Made by a program: the position numbers and the translations under genes. This document shows, in pieces, positions 15,586 through 40,856 of a stretch of DNA of 64,000 nt; the first letter of the stretch is position 1; each line of letters begins with the position of its first letter. The DNA is from Promethearchaeota archaeon (GTDB lineage Archaea > Asgardarchaeota > Lokiarchaeia > Sigyniarchaeales > SOKP01), in contig JAEOUA010000010.1 of assembly GCA_016839555.1 (NCBI GenBank), forward strand, positions 64,001 to 128,000, written 5' to 3'. The notes beneath the pieces are model-generated. The model searched no databases. It worked only from the letters and a program-made list of their open reading frames with translations, and was not told the DNA's origin.

Positions 15586-16164
15586 TTATTTTTCTAATAA
15601 CTTTTTACCTTCTTCAATCCAGTCCTTTATAGAAGCTTCGGAGGTACCACTTACCAGTTTTGCCAATTCTGATGGATTTTCTTTTATTAAATCATTCACT
15701 GAGTGTACTCCGAGGGCATTTAATTTTTCTTGCGTTTTAGGACCTAATCCATACAATTCCGTCAAAGGTATAATCTTTTCTTCTAGTTTCGTCTTCGGGA
15801 TTTTTTGCTTGATTATCTTTTCCTTCTCTGGTTTTTTCTTCTTTACAGGTTCTTTTTCTGGTATTTTTTTTTCGGAAACCAGCTTTTTTTTGGGTTTTTT
15901 TTCTTTAAATGGTGTTCCTTTCTTCTCCTTTTTCACAAATGGTTCTTTTTTTTCTTTTTTCTTTTTAGGAGGTTCTAATGTTTTTAATTGTTCTATATTT
16001 CTTTCGTGAGCAGATTTTCTAAAATAATCAATTTTAATATTTAATTCTTTTAGTAGCTGAACACTTTTCCCAGCCTTTTTAATTTCTGATATGGAAAATC
16101 CGTCTCCTTCTCTATAATGCTGGGTTCTAGATGGAGATTTTACCATTGCTATTTTTTCTTCCAT
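15586..16164 (-). CDS. rpl13e: 50S ribosomal protein L13e fused to a Lys-rich linker and a helix-hairpin-helix domain
   Basis: REGDGFSISEIKKAG...IDYFRKSAHERNIEQL matches the L13e core; C-terminal LYGLGPKT..KL...G HhH. Confidence 0.8.
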   Translation of the reverse strand: MEEKIAMVKSPSRTQHYREGDGFSISEIKKAGKSVQLLKELNIKIDYFRKSAHERNIEQLKTLEPPKKKKEKKEPFVKKEKKGTPFKEKKPKKKLVSEKKIPEKEPVKKKKPEKEKIIKQKIPKTKLEEKIIPLTELYGLGPKTQEKLNALGVHSVNDLIKENPSELAKLVSGTSEASIKDWIEEGKKLLEK

Positions 16165-16321: not shown

Positions 16322-16963
16322 TTAGAAAGAGATAATTTCTTTCTCTTCCAATTTGTTAAGAATTTGGAGGATTTCAATTTTGCTTTTGTTGAATATTCGA
16401 GAAATATCTAACGGAGAATTTTTTCCATTACATTTTAATGCGATTAAATAATCAAGATCGTTAATAATACCCATGGAATGTATTTTTCTCAATATATTTT
16501 TAATTACAGATAATTTAGGGTAGTCTTCCGCTATTTTACCTCCCATAGTTATAATTTCTATATCATTTTTAAAAGTTTTAAATTTGCTTTTTTCGCTGGT
16601 CGTTCGAAATAATTTTATATCTGAATCATGTTTTTTCCAAAATCTATTTCCAATTTTATACGCAACGCTCTTTATTTTTTCAACATTATCTCCCGCATCA
16701 GAAATTGAACATATTAATACCCTCGATTGCTGGTGATAAAAAATAGTTATAATGGAACTTTCCGCTTCAATTATTCTAGTTTTTTCAAATTTTGTTTTTC
16801 CTTTTGCCATAGCTTTATGGATTGAGTCTATTGTTTTATTTATGGCATTGAAGAAATCTGGAAATACTTCTTTTTCTATTTTCTTATTTTGAAATTCTTT
16901 AAATGTGGTATCTAATATTGCAATACCATTATCAGCATCAATTAAATAGACTTTATAAATCAA
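16322..16963 (-). CDS. Longin-like domain plus C-terminal winged-helix protein
   Basis: MIYKVYLIDADNGIAI longin start, FFNAINK helix, RFWKKH...F..F; C-terminal CNGKNSPLDIS...ILNKLEEKEII wHTH. Confidence 0.6.
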   Translation of the reverse strand: MIYKVYLIDADNGIAILDTTFKEFQNKKIEKEVFPDFFNAINKTIDSIHKAMAKGKTKFEKTRIIEAESSIITIFYHQQSRVLICSISDAGDNVEKIKSVAYKIGNRFWKKHDSDIKLFRTTSEKSKFKTFKNDIEIITMGGKIAEDYPKLSVIKNILRKIHSMGIINDLDYLIALKCNGKNSPLDISRIFNKSKIEILQILNKLEEKEIISF

Positions 16964-17143: not shown

Positions 17144-18553
17144 TCAAATATAAGTATTTACTAATTCCACCAAGTTATCGGATAAATCAGGTAAATTTTG
17201 TTCTATTTTATCAATACTTGTATCTATTTCCAAAAGCAAGAGTAAATAAAGAGTATATTTCTGAACCTTAATTCTTTTAAAAACCATCTTTTTTGAATCA
17301 TTTATAGATAGACTTACGATATAATCCTTTTTTAACAATTTAAACTCCTTAAAAGTTTTATAGAGCGTTTGGAAATGAGGAGCACTAATTTCAAAGACTT
17401 TCTCTTGCGTATCATCATGGGAATAATTGGATATGATGATACCATTTTCATTTAATAATAATATAGATTCTATTGAAGTTTTTTTTGCAAATTGTTTGAG
17501 TTGCTGGCGAAATAGTTCCCGATTGGGGCTTAATTGTCCCAACCCAAAAGAATACGCTACCATTAAGGACCATTGAGTGAAAACTGAAGTCTTAAATATC
17601 TTTACAAAAAATCTATCTGATAAATCTTTAATTTTTTCATACAAATACTGATAATGTTGGTTTGTTTCTTCAGAATTTTGTAAATCAGGATCATATTTAT
17701 TTAAACATACCACAATAGGAGGAAATTCATCAAAATCATTTAGAGATCTGATAACATTTCTATATAATGCTAATGATTGATCAAACCGTTTTTGGTCTTG
17801 AATATCTATGAAAAAAAATAATAGATCTATATTATATAAATAAAGTTTACTCTGTTCAAAATATTTATCTAAATACTTCTGCTGTCCACCTAGATCCCAA
17901 ATCATTATTTCGCTGTTCTTTTGAGAAATAAGTTCTTCCTCGCTTCTATTTACTCCCTTAGTTGGCATTGATTTAATTATTTCAGAGTACTTTTTTTTTA
18001 CTCCATATAAAAAACTGGTCTTACCGGCTTTGTCCAAACCTACAAATACGATTTTAATTTTTCGTTTTAAAGAAAAGGGATCTTTTAATTCAATAGTGAA
18101 TTCATTTAATTCTTCTTTTAACGCATCGATATATTGTTGATATTTTATTTTATCTAATGTTTCTTGAATCTTGGTTGCAGTCCTATCTATTATGACCCGT
18201 AAGTATTTCATATTTTCATATAAAAAATTCTTATTATCTTCATCTACAAGGATTGTTATAGTGGCTGCTTTCGCATTCCCTCGTGCTTTAGGATCGGGTA
18301 TTAAAAAGAAATAGGTTAGACCTGTTAACTTGAGATCAGGGAAAGGGATTACTCCAAAATAATTTATTCCATTTATTTCAGAAGAGTCTTGATATGTTGA
18401 ATCGCCCATTAATAGAGAAATTGTTTTCATAGAAATCAATAATCCTGCTCGCTTTTCTAATGATTTTGGCCAATATATTACTGGAATAGGACCATCACTG
18501 CCAAATTCGCTTAATACTATTGATTTAATTACCTGTCTATCAGATTTTTCCAT
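17144..18553 (-). CDS. FLCN/NPRL2-like longin + Rag/Arf-like GTPase + roadblock fusion (Arg-finger loop present)
   Basis: G1 GLDKAGKTS, G2 PTKG, G3 WDLGGQ, G4 NKYD, G5 KTSVF; Rag-like C-terminal roadblock; N-terminal SEF..GP and DPKARG; start probably MEKS (18553), track ORF begins 18601. Confidence 0.85.
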   Translation of the reverse strand: MEKSDRQVIKSIVLSEFGSDGPIPVIYWPKSLEKRAGLLISMKTISLLMGDSTYQDSSEINGINYFGVIPFPDLKLTGLTYFFLIPDPKARGNAKAATITILVDEDNKNFLYENMKYLRVIIDRTATKIQETLDKIKYQQYIDALKEELNEFTIELKDPFSLKRKIKIVFVGLDKAGKTSFLYGVKKKYSEIIKSMPTKGVNRSEEELISQKNSEIMIWDLGGQQKYLDKYFEQSKLYLYNIDLLFFFIDIQDQKRFDQSLALYRNVIRSLNDFDEFPPIVVCLNKYDPDLQNSEETNQHYQYLYEKIKDLSDRFFVKIFKTSVFTQWSLMVAYSFGLGQLSPNRELFRQQLKQFAKKTSIESILLLNENGIIISNYSHDDTQEKVFEISAPHFQTLYKTFKEFKLLKKDYIVSLSINDSKKMVFKRIKVQKYTLYLLLLLEIDTSIDKIEQNLPDLSDNLVELVNTYI

Positions 18554-18755
18554 AGTGATATTTTTTTGAAATGAGTTCTTACATAATAAAAAAAAAATCA
18601 TTATTTTTAATTATATTGGTAAAAAATATGGGATTTCTGAATAAACCATAAATGTAGCTTTTACGATAAAATTACTTAAATTAATTTATTTGGGTTAGAG
18701 ATGTTTTTACCGCTTAATAGTATATCTATACCCTATCTTTGTTTATAAATACTTA

Positions 18756-19577
18756 TTGTTTTCTTTTATTATTATGTTTAAACTTAATTCAAGAGAAAAA
18801 ATACAATTATTTTTCCGAGAATTATTTCAAGTATTAAAAAGTATAAAAAAAAACTGGAATACCCCATGGATTGAAATTCCTACTATATCGTTTTTTAATA
18901 ATTTAAATGTTCATGAAATTAACGAGTTCATTCACTATTTTAATTTTTTAAAGAAAGAAGCTTTCAATTGTATATCAATCAATAAAATTGAATTTATTAT
19001 CGAATCAATGGCAATTTTAAATTATGATATTAAAGTATACTCAGAAATAATAGATTATCATGGATTCGAATTATTAATAAAGAAGATCCTTTGCAGAAAT
19101 GGATATTATGTTATTAATAATTTTTATTTTTCAGATAATTCTCCTTTAAAAGCCCAAAACGGTCAAAAACGTTATGAGATTGATATAGTGGGCTTAAAAA
19201 AAGATATACTCCTTATAATAGATGCAAAACAATGGTTTAAGAGAAGTCCTTCCCAAGCGATTAGTAATGCAGCAAATCTTCAATACCAAAGAGGTTTAGC
19301 ACTCATTCAGAATCCAGAAATTTTAAATGAATTATTATCAAAATTACTTAACTCCTTTAAACATAAGAAAAAAAAGCCTGTGAAAAGATATGGTTTATTA
19401 AAATTAGTTCCATTAATGGTGACCTTAGAGGAAAATTTCATGAAATTAAATGAAAACCATGTTCCTCTTGTTTGTATTAATAGATTAAATTCTTTTTTAA
19501 ATGAATTAGGAATTACTTTAGATAAGTTTCATTACCTAATATTTAATAATTTCTCCCCCAAACCTATAAATTATTGA
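18756..19577 (+). CDS. PD-(D/E)XK nuclease (Mrr/NERD-like)
   Basis: FE..I..IL...GY and EIDIVG...IIDAKQW motifs. Confidence 0.7.
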   Translation: MFSFIIMFKLNSREKIQLFFRELFQVLKSIKKNWNTPWIEIPTISFFNNLNVHEINEFIHYFNFLKKEAFNCISINKIEFIIESMAILNYDIKVYSEIIDYHGFELLIKKILCRNGYYVINNFYFSDNSPLKAQNGQKRYEIDIVGLKKDILLIIDAKQWFKRSPSQAISNAANLQYQRGLALIQNPEILNELLSKLLNSFKHKKKKPVKRYGLLKLVPLMVTLEENFMKLNENHVPLVCINRLNSFLNELGITLDKFHYLIFNNFSPKPINY

Positions 19578-25974: not shown

Positions 25975-27009
25975 TTATTGATTATTTTTCTTTAATAAGC
26001 GTTTTAATTGTTTATTAACAAAAGTACTAGCGATATGTATGATCCCGCTCTTGACTTTTGGATTAGAGAAAATAATTAGGATATTATCACTTAAATCTGC
26101 AGTATTATAATAAAGAGGTGCTAAATCTAACACACCTTCTGTTCCTCTGAGTGTTATCGAATGCAAAACACCAGCATTTAAACCATCAATAATATCTGTT
26201 CCAATCATGAATAAATTTTGTGCGATTGTGGCAAATAAGGAATCAGAAGCTCGATCAGAAATGGCAGATGCTAGGATTTTTCCATCATTATTTAAGATTG
26301 CAGATGCTTCTATATGTATATCTATATTTAATAATTCCTTCAATACTTCATTTAAATTTTCCGGTTTTAACTCTTTTTTACTTTTAACTTTTTCATATGA
26401 TTGTTCCTTATTAACTGTCAATTCAGGAGATGGTAACTTTTCTGATAAAAATGATAAAACTGTTTTCATATCCTTAGCTAGACGCTTTTGCCTATCTGGA
26501 GTGGCTGGTAAACATTCTTCCTTAGTTGATAATTCTTGCGTTTCATCGATTAAGTTTGATTTTGAGGGCTTTTTTATCTCTTTCTTATATGAAGGGGTTA
26601 AAAAAGAACCATCAAAAGGTATTGGGTCAATTTCCTTTAAATATTCTTTTTTATCATATTCCATCTCAATTGAATTAGACTCAAATGATGGTTCCTCATT
26701 TGTCGTTAACCCTTTATTTGGTATATCTTGAAGGTCTGATTTCTTTGGTTTTTGTTGAGACTTTGAATTCTTGCTTAGATTAGGGCCACTAAAGAATTTT
26801 AATTCTCCATATAAATCCATTTTTTGATTATTTTGGACATCTTGATCTTTTTTCTTATTTTTTGGCAAATTTTCTAGGGTATTATTTGCATTTCCATATT
26901 GAATTCGAACTCGTGGAGGTTCGGATGATACAGGGAGAACTGCGCCACATCTTCTACAAACCTTTGCATCATCTCCATTTGATGACCCACAATTACTGCA
27001 TATTCTCAT
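25975..27009 (-). CDS. Zinc ribbon + disordered linker + roadblock/LC7 protein
   Basis: CSNCG...CRRCG; long polar linker; LNEVLKELL..IEASAILNNDGKILAS roadblock. Confidence 0.8.
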   Translation of the reverse strand: MRICSNCGSSNGDDAKVCRRCGAVLPVSSEPPRVRIQYGNANNTLENLPKNKKKDQDVQNNQKMDLYGELKFFSGPNLSKNSKSQQKPKKSDLQDIPNKGLTTNEEPSFESNSIEMEYDKKEYLKEIDPIPFDGSFLTPSYKKEIKKPSKSNLIDETQELSTKEECLPATPDRQKRLAKDMKTVLSFLSEKLPSPELTVNKEQSYEKVKSKKELKPENLNEVLKELLNIDIHIEASAILNNDGKILASAISDRASDSLFATIAQNLFMIGTDIIDGLNAGVLHSITLRGTEGVLDLAPLYYNTADLSDNILIIFSNPKVKSGIIHIASTFVNKQLKRLLKKNNQ

Positions 27010-27215: not shown

Positions 27216-28154
27216 TTACCTAATAAATGATTCCAAAAAATTACTTAATATTACTACTGAATCATTATTATAGGTGGATTCCTTCTTTACAAAAAGTAGA
27301 TAATAAGGTGGATTAACCCTTATTTGGGAAAAGAAAAAATATCTATTATGTCGATATACAATAATTTTATCTTCTGGATTCTTTACAGAAAAACCTCTGG
27401 TCCCAACTAATAGATTAAATCGGTCATTTAAGCGAAGAAAATAAGGAGGAACTAAATTCATTAATTCTTCAATATTGTTATCTTCAAAAAAAGAACTGAC
27501 TATTAAGGAATTATTATCAATTAATACTGCCCCTTCACAGTTTTCTTTATAAGCAAATTGTTCTAATGTTCTATTTAATAACTCAGGTTTATCTATAAGT
27601 GTGAGGAAAATTTCAGACATTACTTGTATTAATCCAGAAATATCATATACAGAAGTCTTATAGAAATAGAGCCGTTTATAGTTAGATGCTTTCTTAATAT
27701 CTTCCTTTAAATTGATTATTAATTCCGAATATTCATTTAATGCACTTCTTTCCAACGCGGGATCGTACTTATGAAAGAATATATAAATTGGAGGATTGAT
27801 TTCTAATTCCTCAAATTTTTTGATAACATCATCAAGATAACTAAGAGCCTCTGGAATCCTTTTTTTATTTCTGATGTCTATACAAAAGATACAGATTTCT
27901 GTATTATCGAAATATTTACCAGGATTTTTAATATATGAGATACGATAGAGTTCTTGTCCACCAAGGTCCCACTCGCTTATGTTTCTTCCTAAGAAACTAA
28001 AAACCCTTCTCTGAGCCCCTCTAGTGGGAGTAATAGAAGATATTTTCGAAAATTCTCTTTGTAAAGCTAGTATAATAGAGCTTTTTCCTGCATTATCCAA
28101 TCCGGTGAAGAGAATCTTCTCAACCTCGATGTCCTCTTGTTTTAAATATTCCAT
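27216..28154 (-). CDS. Rag/Gtr-like small GTPase with C-terminal roadblock
   Basis: GLDNAGKSS, PTRG, WDLGGQ, HKYD, KTSVYD; L..TLEQFA...EGAVLIDNNSLIVSS roadblock. Confidence 0.88.
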   Translation of the reverse strand: MEYLKQEDIEVEKILFTGLDNAGKSSIILALQREFSKISSITPTRGAQRRVFSFLGRNISEWDLGGQELYRISYIKNPGKYFDNTEICIFCIDIRNKKRIPEALSYLDDVIKKFEELEINPPIYIFFHKYDPALERSALNEYSELIINLKEDIKKASNYKRLYFYKTSVYDISGLIQVMSEIFLTLIDKPELLNRTLEQFAYKENCEGAVLIDNNSLIVSSFFEDNNIEELMNLVPPYFLRLNDRFNLLVGTRGFSVKNPEDKIIVYRHNRYFFFSQIRVNPPYYLLFVKKESTYNNDSVVILSNFLESFIR

Positions 28155-37461: not shown

Positions 37462-37621
37462 ATAATATTATAAGAAAGTTTTATTATTATAAGAATGTTT
37501 TATTTTCATAATAACCTTCTTACAAAATTTTAATCTGAAATAAATATTTAATAGACTCAATAAATAATCATCCTAATAATATATTCATTAAAATTAAGAT
37601 TAATAAAAATTTCTCAAAGCT

Positions 37622-39091
37622 ATGGAAAAATTATTTGAAACTTCAATTATTAAGGGGTTTGTTTTGTCCTACTCGCATACAGAAAAAGGACCAGAATTAA
37701 TATACACGTTTCCTTATTACAAAAAACAAGAAGCTAAGAGTAATGAAGATAGTAATATAAATGAAAGAAATGAAATAATCCTTACTCAGCAAGAGTTTAT
37801 GAAGATCACGATTAAAAATTTATCACTAGTCCTCACTGATGAAATTATTTCCTCTGAAGGTGAAGAAAAACCACAATATTTTTGCATTATTCCGTTTCCA
37901 GATTTCTTTCTTACGGCAATAACTTATTATCATTATATTAATGGAAATGTAATCGCTTTTTCCGTGCTTGTTCATGAGAATGATAGAAATTTTTTGTATA
38001 AAAATCATAATGGGATTAAGAAAATTATAATTGAGTTTTTTAAGAAATTTGATAAAATTCTGGCACAGAATTTTATATCACAAGAAGAAGCACACCCCTA
38101 TTTTGAAAACCTTTTGATACAATTAAAAGAATTAGAAAATCAGAAATTAGATCCAGCAATAGCCGATAGAAAAATGAAAATAATATTAGCTGGATTAGAC
38201 GATTCCGGAAAAACTAGCTTTCTTTTAACCGTTGATCGCAAATTTTCAAAATTAATGAATATAAAACCTACAGCTGGGGCTAAAGTACAATCTATCCAAG
38301 CTTTAGGGGCGACACTCTTTATCTGGGATCTTGGAGGTCAGAGAAAATACCTAGCTAAATATTTAACTAAATCAAGTATTTATTTATATGAATCTGATTT
38401 AATCTTTTATTTTATTGATATTAAAAATAGAGAAAGGTTTGATGAAAGCCTTGATTATTTAAGGAGAATTCATAAAATACTGTATAAAGAGTTAAACCAA
38501 GACACTCCTATAGTCTATATTTTTTCTAAAGGAGATATTGATATAATAGACACAAGGGAAATAAAACAAAATATTAAATATCTCAAATTCAAGATCAAAG
38601 ATATTATAAATAAAAAAAAATTTAGAACTCATGTCACCAGTATCTTCGAAATTACAACTGTTCTACGAGCTTTTTCTGAAGGAATAAAGAAATTAAGTTT
38701 TAACCGAAAATTGATAAATTATAACTTAAAAAAATTCTCGAGAAAAATAAATGCCTATATTACTTTACTTTTGAGTAATGATGGATTAATTCTATCAAAT
38801 TATTATTCTACGCAAATAAAACCAAAAGAAATAATACAAGATGTACTAGAAATTACGGCTCCTCAATTCACTATTATATATAAAATATTTTATAAATTTA
38901 AAGCCCTTAATAAAGAACAGGCGATATTTGAAGTAGCAAATTCAATATTTCTTATCAAAAGAACTAAGATTTTAGGACAAGATATTTTTATATTATTCGT
39001 CCTTAACAATTTAAACAAACAAAATAAAATAAATATATTATTACCTGAGTTTTTAGATCGGATTAAAAGTTTACTTACCACATATATATAA
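37622..39091 (+). CDS. FLCN/NPRL2-like longin + Rag/Arf-like GTPase + roadblock fusion (Arg-finger loop absent)
   Basis: GLDDSGKTS, PTAG, WDLGGQ, SKGD, VTSIFE; shares YF.IIPFPD, NFLY.N, YLY..DL.F.FIDI and EI.AP.F with 17144-18601. Confidence 0.85.
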   Translation: MEKLFETSIIKGFVLSYSHTEKGPELIYTFPYYKKQEAKSNEDSNINERNEIILTQQEFMKITIKNLSLVLTDEIISSEGEEKPQYFCIIPFPDFFLTAITYYHYINGNVIAFSVLVHENDRNFLYKNHNGIKKIIIEFFKKFDKILAQNFISQEEAHPYFENLLIQLKELENQKLDPAIADRKMKIILAGLDDSGKTSFLLTVDRKFSKLMNIKPTAGAKVQSIQALGATLFIWDLGGQRKYLAKYLTKSSIYLYESDLIFYFIDIKNRERFDESLDYLRRIHKILYKELNQDTPIVYIFSKGDIDIIDTREIKQNIKYLKFKIKDIINKKKFRTHVTSIFEITTVLRAFSEGIKKLSFNRKLINYNLKKFSRKINAYITLLLSNDGLILSNYYSTQIKPKEIIQDVLEITAPQFTIIYKIFYKFKALNKEQAIFEVANSIFLIKRTKILGQDIFILFVLNNLNKQNKINILLPEFLDRIKSLLTTYI

Positions 39092-39127
39092 TATTAAAAT
39101 AGTCTTTTCCTTAAAAAAATTCAAAAT

Positions 39128-40033
39128 TTAAAATATCTTCTTTAAAGGATTCCTATCCGATAATTTTTTTCTTAAAACTCTTTTTCTATAATACGACTTC
39201 ATTCCAGAGATTAATGCTAGCGAAGGAATGACGCATTGAGCAAATTTAATAGGACCAAAAAGAACAAAATCACCTCCAGCATCAATACAATTTACCATAA
39301 TTGATGAAATGGCGCCACAACGTACTTCATCTCCATATTTTTTGATATATTCCCAGCCATATATCGCATTCGAAGGAGCATAACCCGTAGGAAAACCCGT
39401 TTCTCTTTTAATCAATGATGTAGCCTCAGCATTAAAGCTTATCGAGGGAAGATCTAAAACTGCTGTATCTACAATTAAATTATCAATCCCAGCCTTCTTA
39501 GCCTTTGGTATTAATATATCTTTAAGAAATTTTAATTTTTGTTCAGGATATATTGCTTTCATTCCAAATGTTAATAACACTGAATTCTTAATTCCAATCT
39601 GCTTTAGTTTTTCGCAAGACTCTTCGGTAGTATTCTCATCAATACTATTTAAAATAGCTCGATTTAATAAACCAATTTCTTTTAGCCCTTTCAAGGCGGG
39701 AATTCTAATCTCATCATTTAATCCATCTACTAAAAATGGTATATCAACCAAATCCGCTATATATACACATTCTTTTATTAACGCTTCTGGATAAGCACCA
39801 ACAATATCAATTATTGCTTGTATATTATTATCATCTACAATACTCATAAAATCATTTACTTCTTGTTCAACAAGATCTTTGTCAAATTCTCCTGTTTTTT
39901 CATTTTTTAATGCAGGATGTTTTGAATAAAAGACAGAACCAATTGCAGCCGGAGGATACTCTCCGGGTTGTCCTCCAAGCTTAATATTCCCAATTTCTAT
40001 AATTTTTTGCTCTTTTTCAAAAAGAAAGACCAT
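39128..40033 (-). CDS. mtrH: MtrH/MtgA-like pterin:corrinoid methyltransferase (stand-alone)
   Basis: FEKEQK...GGQPGEYP...GSVFY, FLVDG, ILNSI, VDTAV, GGDFVLFGPI. Confidence 0.88.
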   Translation of the reverse strand: MVFLFEKEQKIIEIGNIKLGGQPGEYPPAAIGSVFYSKHPALKNEKTGEFDKDLVEQEVNDFMSIVDDNNIQAIIDIVGAYPEALIKECVYIADLVDIPFLVDGLNDEIRIPALKGLKEIGLLNRAILNSIDENTTEESCEKLKQIGIKNSVLLTFGMKAIYPEQKLKFLKDILIPKAKKAGIDNLIVDTAVLDLPSISFNAEATSLIKRETGFPTGYAPSNAIYGWEYIKKYGDEVRCGAISSIMVNCIDAGGDFVLFGPIKFAQCVIPSLALISGMKSYYRKRVLRKKLSDRNPLKKIF

Positions 40034-40178: not shown

Positions 40179-40856
40179 TTATGATTCTGTTAAGGAGATA
40201 GGCACCTTATCTTTAGGAGGTGCTTTTCCATCTCCATAAATCTGATACATAACGGCCCTTCTAGAGCATTCATAAAAACTCTCATAAATATTCATCTGCT
40301 TATCATAAAGAGCACAAGTATGAAATATCTTAGGATTCCATATAGAAAGATCATGATTGGAATTGTACCATAATTTTTCTTCCTTAAGGACTTTTTTGAA
40401 ATCCTCTGCTTTTATTGTCAAACTTAAATCTTGTTTATTCAACATAACAACTAGGGGAATCTCTTTAATCAGCTTATCATATGCTATTGTTTTTAATTCT
40501 TTTAGAAATTCAATGTTATCTTCAATACATTTTTGCTGAGAATCAACTACAAAAAGAATTCCATCTGTTTGCTCATAAACCCGCTTACGTAATTTTGAAT
40601 AGCTTTTTTGACCAGCAACGGTATATATCAAATAATAAACCTTATTTTGTTTTTTAGATTGAAAAAGTCCTTTATCATACAATAAGGTTGCGCCACTACT
40701 GCTTTCTATTTTTGTTAAATTTTCCGTAGGGACGATATTTTTATTCTCTTCTTTTGTTAATTTATATAAGGTGTCTAATATAGTAGTTTTTCCCGATGCG
40801 TACATTCCAAAATAGAGGATCTTTATGTAGATCTTATCCCCATCGATTTTTACCAT
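40179..40856 (-). CDS. MglA-like small GTPase
   Basis: KILYFG..ASGKTT, TLLYD, YTVAGQ, DGILFVVDS, NKQD. Confidence 0.85.
   Translation of the reverse strand: MVKIDGDKIYIKILYFGMYASGKTTILDTLYKLTKEENKNIVPTENLTKIESSSGATLLYDKGLFQSKKQNKVYYLIYTVAGQKSYSKLRKRVYEQTDGILFVVDSQQKCIEDNIEFLKELKTIAYDKLIKEIPLVVMLNKQDLSLTIKAEDFKKVLKEEKLWYNSNHDLSIWNPKIFHTCALYDKQMNIYESFYECSRRAVMYQIYGDGKAPPKDKVPISLTES

Follow-up and report, generated by a model that had tools for sequence, protein, structure and literature searches.

Proteins that combine a longin domain, a Rag/Arf-like GTPase domain and a roadblock domain in one chain (LGR proteins) have been described in Promethearchaeum syntrophicum MK-D1, among them WP_147663355.1 and WP_147663364.1, and the available part of that work includes homodimeric models of the longin-containing MK-D1 GTPases in its Supplementary Fig. 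8 (Tran et al., 2024; PMC10933270). Two proteins with the same architecture, here called A and B, are encoded by the 64,000-nucleotide stretch of DNA analyzed in this study (the window). The available part of PMC10933270 aligns the G domains only and is silent on the longin arginine and its loss in one paralog, and likewise on conservation of the locus and on a heterodimer of A and B. Asgard FLCN/SMCR8-type longins with a GP motif and an arginine finger have also been reported, with GAP activity proposed and the partner GTPase left open, in a study which further notes the retention of the GP motif in the non-catalytic C9orf72 (Novak Vanclova et al., 2025; PMC12290439). Protein A shares the GP motif and the finger with these longins and B shares the GP motif; in contrast to them, the longin is fused to a GTPase and a finger-less sister clade exists.

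In the eukaryotic longin GAPs, both longins contact the GTPase and one of them provides the arginine (10.1101/2022.06.28.498039; 10.1101/2020.04.15.042515). SMCR8-C9orf72, FLCN-FNIP1/2 and NPRL2-NPRL3 each contain one longin with and one without the finger, as do A and B, and B resembles C9orf72 in keeping the GP motif. Unlike these heterodimers, the candidate pair suggested here by sequences and models has a GTPase fused to each longin, and the longin of B is followed by a G domain and a roadblock domain instead of DENN or winged-helix domains. The LGR pair, found in one order, is more likely a parallel solution than an ancestor of the eukaryotic pairs.

The Rag/Gtr GTPases (RagA/B-RagC/D, Gtr1-Gtr2) and LokiRagO (8YL2) have the same fold of a G domain with a C-terminal roadblock domain as B (Z 25-29), but B differs from Rag/Gtr by the additional N-terminal longin, the Arf-like wording of G1 and G3, and SKGD rather than HKxD as G4 (HKMD in RagA, HKVD in RagC). 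The solved Asgard Rag relatives LokiRagO (8YL2) and LokiRagM (8ZLA, 9M28) are titled homotetrameric and monomeric, respectively, not heterodimeric. Our literature search, which had few subscription papers within reach, returned no article on an LGR pair with and without the arginine or on LokiRagO/8YL2, and no measured GAP activity for any Asgard longin was found in the literature surveyed. Thus, the LGR architecture and the Asgard arginine-finger longins are known, and the putative pairing of an arginine-containing with an arginine-lacking LGR protein appears, within the scope of this search, to be new. It bears on the questions of which GTPases are served by the Asgard arginine-finger longins (posed in PMC12290439) and how symmetric ancestors gave rise to catalytic/non-catalytic longin pairs and to Rag heterodimers. 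In this locus, a concrete candidate set of enzyme, partner and substrate can be named (A, B and a third gene, C); an organism in culture has all three, and one of them has been crystallized. The locus also represents a dated case in which duplication was followed by the loss of one finger; as the full-length pair was seen in one order only, it informs the evolution of asymmetry more than the direct eukaryotic ancestor.

Domain architecture of A and B and the arginine-finger loop

The features of the window referred to below are as follows.

37622-39091, + strand: paralog B, 489-residue LGR protein without the arginine finger (ORF, Pfam, AlphaFold)
37640-38146, + strand: longin domain of B, approximately residues 7-175
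37937-37951, + strand: shortened hairpin between longin strands 4 and 5 of B (I106-V110), without arginine and 7 residues shorter than in A
38168-38698, + strand: GTPase domain of B
38699-39088, + strand: roadblock domain of B
38843-38908, + strand: second helix of the B roadblock domain, where the A and B consensus sequences resemble each other most
17144-18601, - strand: paralog A, LGR protein with the ARG finger loop, 485-residue ORF (ORF, Pfam, AlphaFold)
18281-18283, - strand: codon of R107, candidate arginine finger of A, invariant in 120 of 120 orthologs
27216-28154, - strand: gene C, 312-residue GTPase-roadblock Rag-like protein
25975-27009, - strand: zinc-ribbon plus roadblock protein, usually adjoining C (Pfam)

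The A and B genes lie approximately 19 kb apart in the window. A sequence-only reading of this DNA had proposed that the two proteins are paralogs from end to end, and BLASTP confirmed their kinship (35% identity over 441 columns, E 2e-70). The loops and the G4 motifs (SKGD in B, 38525-38536; NKYD in A, 17690-17701) likewise read in the DNA as claimed. AlphaFold modeled three domains in both A and B, the model of B having a pLDDT of 81.8. B thus carries longin, small GTPase and roadblock domains in one chain. The Pfam models Gtr1_RagA and Arf were found in A, B and C alike (Gtr1_RagA in B, E 1.9e-19). A fold search with residues 184-485 of B retrieved 8YL2 at Z 28.9 and RagA (6U62_B) at Z 26.6 (rmsd 3.8, 291 aligned). 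The longin of A matched the Lokiarchaeal longin 8YQG (Z 17.1, rmsd 2.3, 138 aligned), and a profile of arginine-containing Asgard longins matched the longin of B (E 5.8e-11). The GP motif of B (G23-P24, 37688-37693) precedes longin strand 2 and is conserved at 90% or more in the A and B clades alike. The true start of A is probably M17 (18553), judging from its closest orthologs, which are 470 residues long and begin near this position; the first 16 codons of the ORF (18553-18601) are likely untranslated.

In the model of A (residues 1-469), the arginine sits between strands 92-102 and 110-120, whereas the corresponding strands of B (97-106 and 109-118) are joined by a tight turn, and the loop between strands 4 and 5 of B has no arginine. 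The BLASTP alignment places a 7-residue gap in B exactly opposite the loop of A. The proposal that B lacks exactly this loop is therefore right about the gap but not about its being the only difference in length, since B also has an insertion of approximately 20 residues after longin strand 2 that is found clade-wide. The B stretch showed no differences in one contig of the probable source run, and positions 37534-39200 were unchanged in a second sample, which excludes an assembly error in B; both samples belong to one study rather than to independent studies.

The shortening itself holds for this B protein, but the trait of the whole clade is the loss of the ARG motif and not of the loop. The loop span is 36 in 119 of 120 A orthologs, and among 116 B orthologs it is 35 in 98, 34 in 13 and 29 in 5, the last group comprising this B and its four nearest relatives. 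With 5 of 116 orthologs carrying it, a 7-residue deletion as the defining mark of the paralog was ruled out; going by these spans, the deletion is a late, local event. The additional 6-residue shortening in this lineage would then be a late trim of a loop that was already without arginine. Two of the nearest B relatives (P0002, P0003) have RG in the shortened loop where this B has NG; the likeness to a finger is probably coincidental, the hairpin being 7 residues short.

The Pfam Folliculin model matched A only (residues 95-158, 25.7 bits against a cutoff of 23.3), with R107 inside the match, and gave no match in B. Among arginine-containing Asgard longins, 24 of 70 match this model. Going by the loop of FLCN, R107 of A may be the equivalent of FLCN R164 and SMCR8 R147. 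PDB sequence searches with the A longin gave no FLCN or NPRL2 match, and SMCR8 was matched in the GP region alone (E 0.15). In fold searches with the full-length models, GTPases took up the lists of matches, and these searches are hence uninformative about FLCN.

Phylogeny, co-occurrence and genomic linkage of the paralogs

R107 is kept in all of the A orthologs examined, and the ARG motif is absent from 64 of 64 locus-derived B proteins. In the longin family at large (longin-Rab, roadblock-longin and others), the R107 column holds an arginine in 113 of 153 aligned rows. In the longin tree, which contains no eukaryotic rows, 30 B rows form one clade (support 98/95) that is sister to A, with arginine-containing outgroups; five further rows labeled B are not B, three of them falling inside A and two being standalone longins. 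The prevalence of the arginine and the single B clade sister to A indicate that the arginine is ancestral and was lost once for B. It had been considered that loop loss might be sporadic among many paralogs; instead, the presence or absence of the arginine marks a fixed, ancient division between two groups of orthologs. Independent losses of the arginine also occurred elsewhere, in the three rows inside A and in the protein of 8YQG. The latter is the MK-D1 roadblock-longin L166 (G106:C1:1540454-1540810), which is without the finger arginine though most members of its family keep it.

Homologs of A and B carry Promethearchaeota/Lokiarchaeota names. The G-domain motifs of WP_147663355.1 and WP_147663364.1 match the A and B orthologs of one genome in our set (G106), which we therefore took as MK-D1. 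B groups in the tree with the L032 protein; synteny and the motifs, which are those of WP_147663364.1, likewise agree with orthology to an MK-D1 LGR protein. In MK-D1, A and B are both present and are divergently linked around C. The MK-D1 C gene, a syntenic orthologue of C, is identical to PDB 8YL2 (LokiRagO), which is titled a homotetramer with GTP.

Both genes were found in 103 of 127 genomes of the source family, A only in 6, B only in 11 and neither in 7; these counts are descriptive, as related genomes are not independent. In 16 of the 17 single-gene genomes, the locus stops at a contig end or scaffold gap. The remaining one (G030, 99% complete) has lost B by a clean deletion, with none elsewhere and with A and C intact; the site of the loss lies between AIRS and MtrH (L188:15417-16135). 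The two paralogs thus occur one-to-one across the family and in MK-D1, so that the co-occurrence pattern anticipated for a functional pair exists. Four genomes of two other families (f3/f4; 66-88% complete) contain A and no full-length B. In two of them, both of f3, a standalone 169-residue longin with the GP motif and without the arginine lies divergently, approximately 2 kb upstream of A (L039:12350-12859, L061:9476-9985), and is possibly a truncated or replacement partner of A. Outside the Lokiarchaeial order, the matches were mostly longin-Rab and other fusions, and LGR proteins were not among the matches listed in the two class-level genomes inspected. The full-length LGR pair was seen in one Lokiarchaeial order only.

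Same-contig A and B genes are divergent in 71 of 72 cases, at a median distance of 8.2 kb. C lies between them in 57 of 57 single-region loci and the zinc-ribbon roadblock gene in 54 of 57, and the order A, NERD, zinc-ribbon roadblock, C, SLOG, AIRS, B is found in 52 of 57; in the window, metabolic genes are inserted into this order. Synteny was ruled out as evidence specific to A and B, the unrelated NERD, SLOG and AIRS genes being equally linked.

The G domain of B and the putative partnership with A

Our preferred reading, which we consider evenly balanced between right and wrong, is that B is the finger-less, non-catalytic member of a Rag-like switch module of A, B and C, and a partner of A. 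The G domain of B has an intact P-loop (38192-38218), the switch I threonine and a G3 motif with the catalytic glutamine (38324-38341). Among 120 B orthologs, G4 is SKGD in 107, SKAD in 9 and TKGD in 4; the A orthologs have mostly NKxD, with SKxD in 5 of 120. The lysine and aspartate of G4 read guanine, and since both are kept, B likely retains guanine-nucleotide binding. The median dN/dS of the G domain is 0.11 in B versus 0.09 in A. The idea that SKGD marks a dead G domain was rejected in view of the conserved lysine and aspartate, the A orthologs with SKxD and this dN/dS. With G1 and G3 intact and under purifying selection, B is probably GAP-dead but not GTPase-dead. The earlier description of B as inactive thus fits its longin finger but not its G domain, which, judging from its motifs, looks functional in the family of the source genome. 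In the MK-D1 family, two genomes have a B whose G3 is without the glutamine, and L037 and L048 have a degenerate P-loop or G3; a degenerate G3 also occurs in a few A orthologs.

All domains of B evolve faster than those of A (tree lengths 17.95/15.47/12.13 versus 12.31/9.80/8.13). This, together with the degenerate motifs and the clean loss of B in G030, is what would be expected if B were a largely redundant duplicate under relaxed selection, whose finger loss and G4 change have no specific role. However, dN/dS across B is 0.11-0.18, 39 columns are fixed differently in the two clades, 13 are conserved in B only, and B is retained from the source family to MK-D1. Redundancy of B is strongly disfavored by these sequence comparisons, and we regard it as very improbable.

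Partial rate correlations were calculated for 56 loci with seven genes (21 neighbor pairs). The A-B correlation was the highest of all pairs (rho 0.49, bootstrap 0.32-0.63) and ranked first in 780 of 1,000 resamplings, followed by SLOG-AIRS (0.34), B-C (0.28) and A-C (0.26). On terminal branches B-C (0.54) exceeded A-B (0.47), and with the longins left out A-B (0.40) was similar to A-C (0.37). The longin-longin covariation (0.32) was among the top domain pairs. These patterns support one A/B/C pathway and modestly favor A-B, with the proviso that paralogs may covary without binding.

The terminal-branch values are consistent with a different arrangement, in which B would pair through its roadblock domain with C or with the zinc-ribbon roadblock protein, in a Rag- or Ragulator-like manner, and would serve A or an arginine-containing longin-Rab as a substrate or effector at most. 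The linkage of A and B is broken in two genomes of the MK-D1 family, and they point in opposite directions: in G055, B remains with C and A is 81 kb away, whereas in G039, C and the zinc-ribbon gene stay with A and B is on another contig. Two more arginine-containing longins in the source genome (C2:56304, C7:302311) would suit this arrangement; on the other hand, B-C covaries less than A-B over all branches, and the C ortholog satisfies its own interfaces alone in the crystal. We consider such a pairing quite unlikely.

In complex predictions, A and B scored 0.55 (runs 0.56, 0.54 and 0.55) against 0.02 for the best control, homodimers not being among the controls. The runs shared at least 88% of contacts, with a partner pLDDT of at least 73. 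Chain A comprised residues 1-469, which include the 16 probably untranslated N-terminal residues and omit the last 16 of the roadblock helix. Among reference pairs, 58 of 80 solved and 2 of 110 mismatched ones attained the mark, 7 of the solved ones and both mismatches at scores of up to 0.60. The score lends weak support to the modeled A:B complex. It may reflect likeness to solved Rag/roadblock dimers, and close cousins of true partners also pass. The putative heterodimer suggested in the sequence-only reading is plausible, tempered by this possible likeness and by the dispensability of B in some genomes.

A and B could instead be separate homodimeric switches of one pathway, A inactivating itself with its own GAP and B acting as a switch that is slow or stays GTP-bound for long, with its longin as a scaffold or exchange platform. 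Precedents for self-association include the arginine-less MK-D1 longin of 8YQG, which was crystallized alone and is titled a dimer, the homotetrameric C ortholog, and, in the available part of PMC10933270, the homodimeric models of longin-containing MK-D1 GTPases. A occurs without B in G030 and probably also in f3/f4, and co-occurrence and covariation need a shared pathway only. Against separate homodimers stand the weakly positive A:B prediction, the longin-longin covariation and the roadblock domain. The second helix of roadblock domains is the usual dimer helix, and in the A and B consensus sequences it is more alike (55%) than the G domain (42%), which favors cross-pairing. On this evidence we judge separate homodimers unlikely, if still a serious contender.

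The partnership of A and B is suggested by the asymmetry of the arginine, co-occurrence, covariation, dN/dS, the weak complex score and the eukaryotic template. It is weakened by linkage that unrelated genes share, by G030 and f3/f4 with A and without B, by the lone 8YQG dimer and the C homotetramer, and by the covariation with the longins left out and on terminal branches. B has kept the longin fold, the GP motif, an A-like roadblock dimer helix and, in the source family, a constrained G domain; A has kept all of its features. We propose a single, early origin of B within one Lokiarchaeial order, through duplication of an arginine-finger LGR gene. A and B may associate via their roadblock and/or longin domains, and their two longins may build a joint platform for the docking of a single G domain, in the manner of FLCN-FNIP2 or SMCR8-C9orf72. 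If one G domain sits across the two-fold axis of such a longin dimer, one finger could go after duplication and a single finger would suffice: R107 of A would stimulate hydrolysis, and B would complete the platform with its other half and add a second nucleotide state. The target would most likely be the G domain of A itself or C, rather than that of B, since the G3 glutamine or P-loop of B has decayed in some lineages of the MK-D1 family, making the B G domain the least likely essential target of the A finger. C is a candidate substrate or third partner, and the zinc-ribbon roadblock protein a possible scaffold. In a more specific version, one heterodimer would pair its roadblock domains in the Rag manner and its longins in the FLCN/FNIP manner, both pairings at once being what the sequence-only reading suggested. 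It would be a two-chain, self-timing switch, in which the single finger of A would act either within the dimer, on one of its G domains, or on C; we entertain this version tentatively and think it somewhat unlikely. If true, this archaeal heterodimer would have evolved independently as a counterpart of the Rag and longin-GAP logic.

Other genes of the locus and the source genome

A conserved 213-residue gene downstream of A (16322-16963, - strand) is syntenic in many relatives; its Atlas neighbors are unnamed Promethearchaeota/Thorarchaeota clusters, some with HTH domains, and it gave no match to the GAP-type longin profile. The NERD gene (18756-19577, + strand), which encodes a NERD/Mrr-like nuclease domain (Atlas score 0.97), is divergent from A in nearly all loci. 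Another small GTPase is encoded at 40179-40856 (- strand; Pfam Arf, E 3.6e-18), and in G055 and G018, in which A has left the vicinity of B, its ortholog is the gene immediately downstream of A. The gene at 15586-16164 (- strand) is ribosomal protein L13e-like with a C-terminal helix-hairpin-helix, by weak Pfam matches. Gene C is tandemly duplicated in two loci (L042:16904-18933, L057:14987-17097). The two additional longin-GTPase fusions of the source genome, C2:56304-57347 (L051) and C7:302311-303291 (L052), carry an RG finger motif. The L051 fusion has a Rab-like G domain, and such longin-Rab genes often occur in relatives as neighboring pairs near B.
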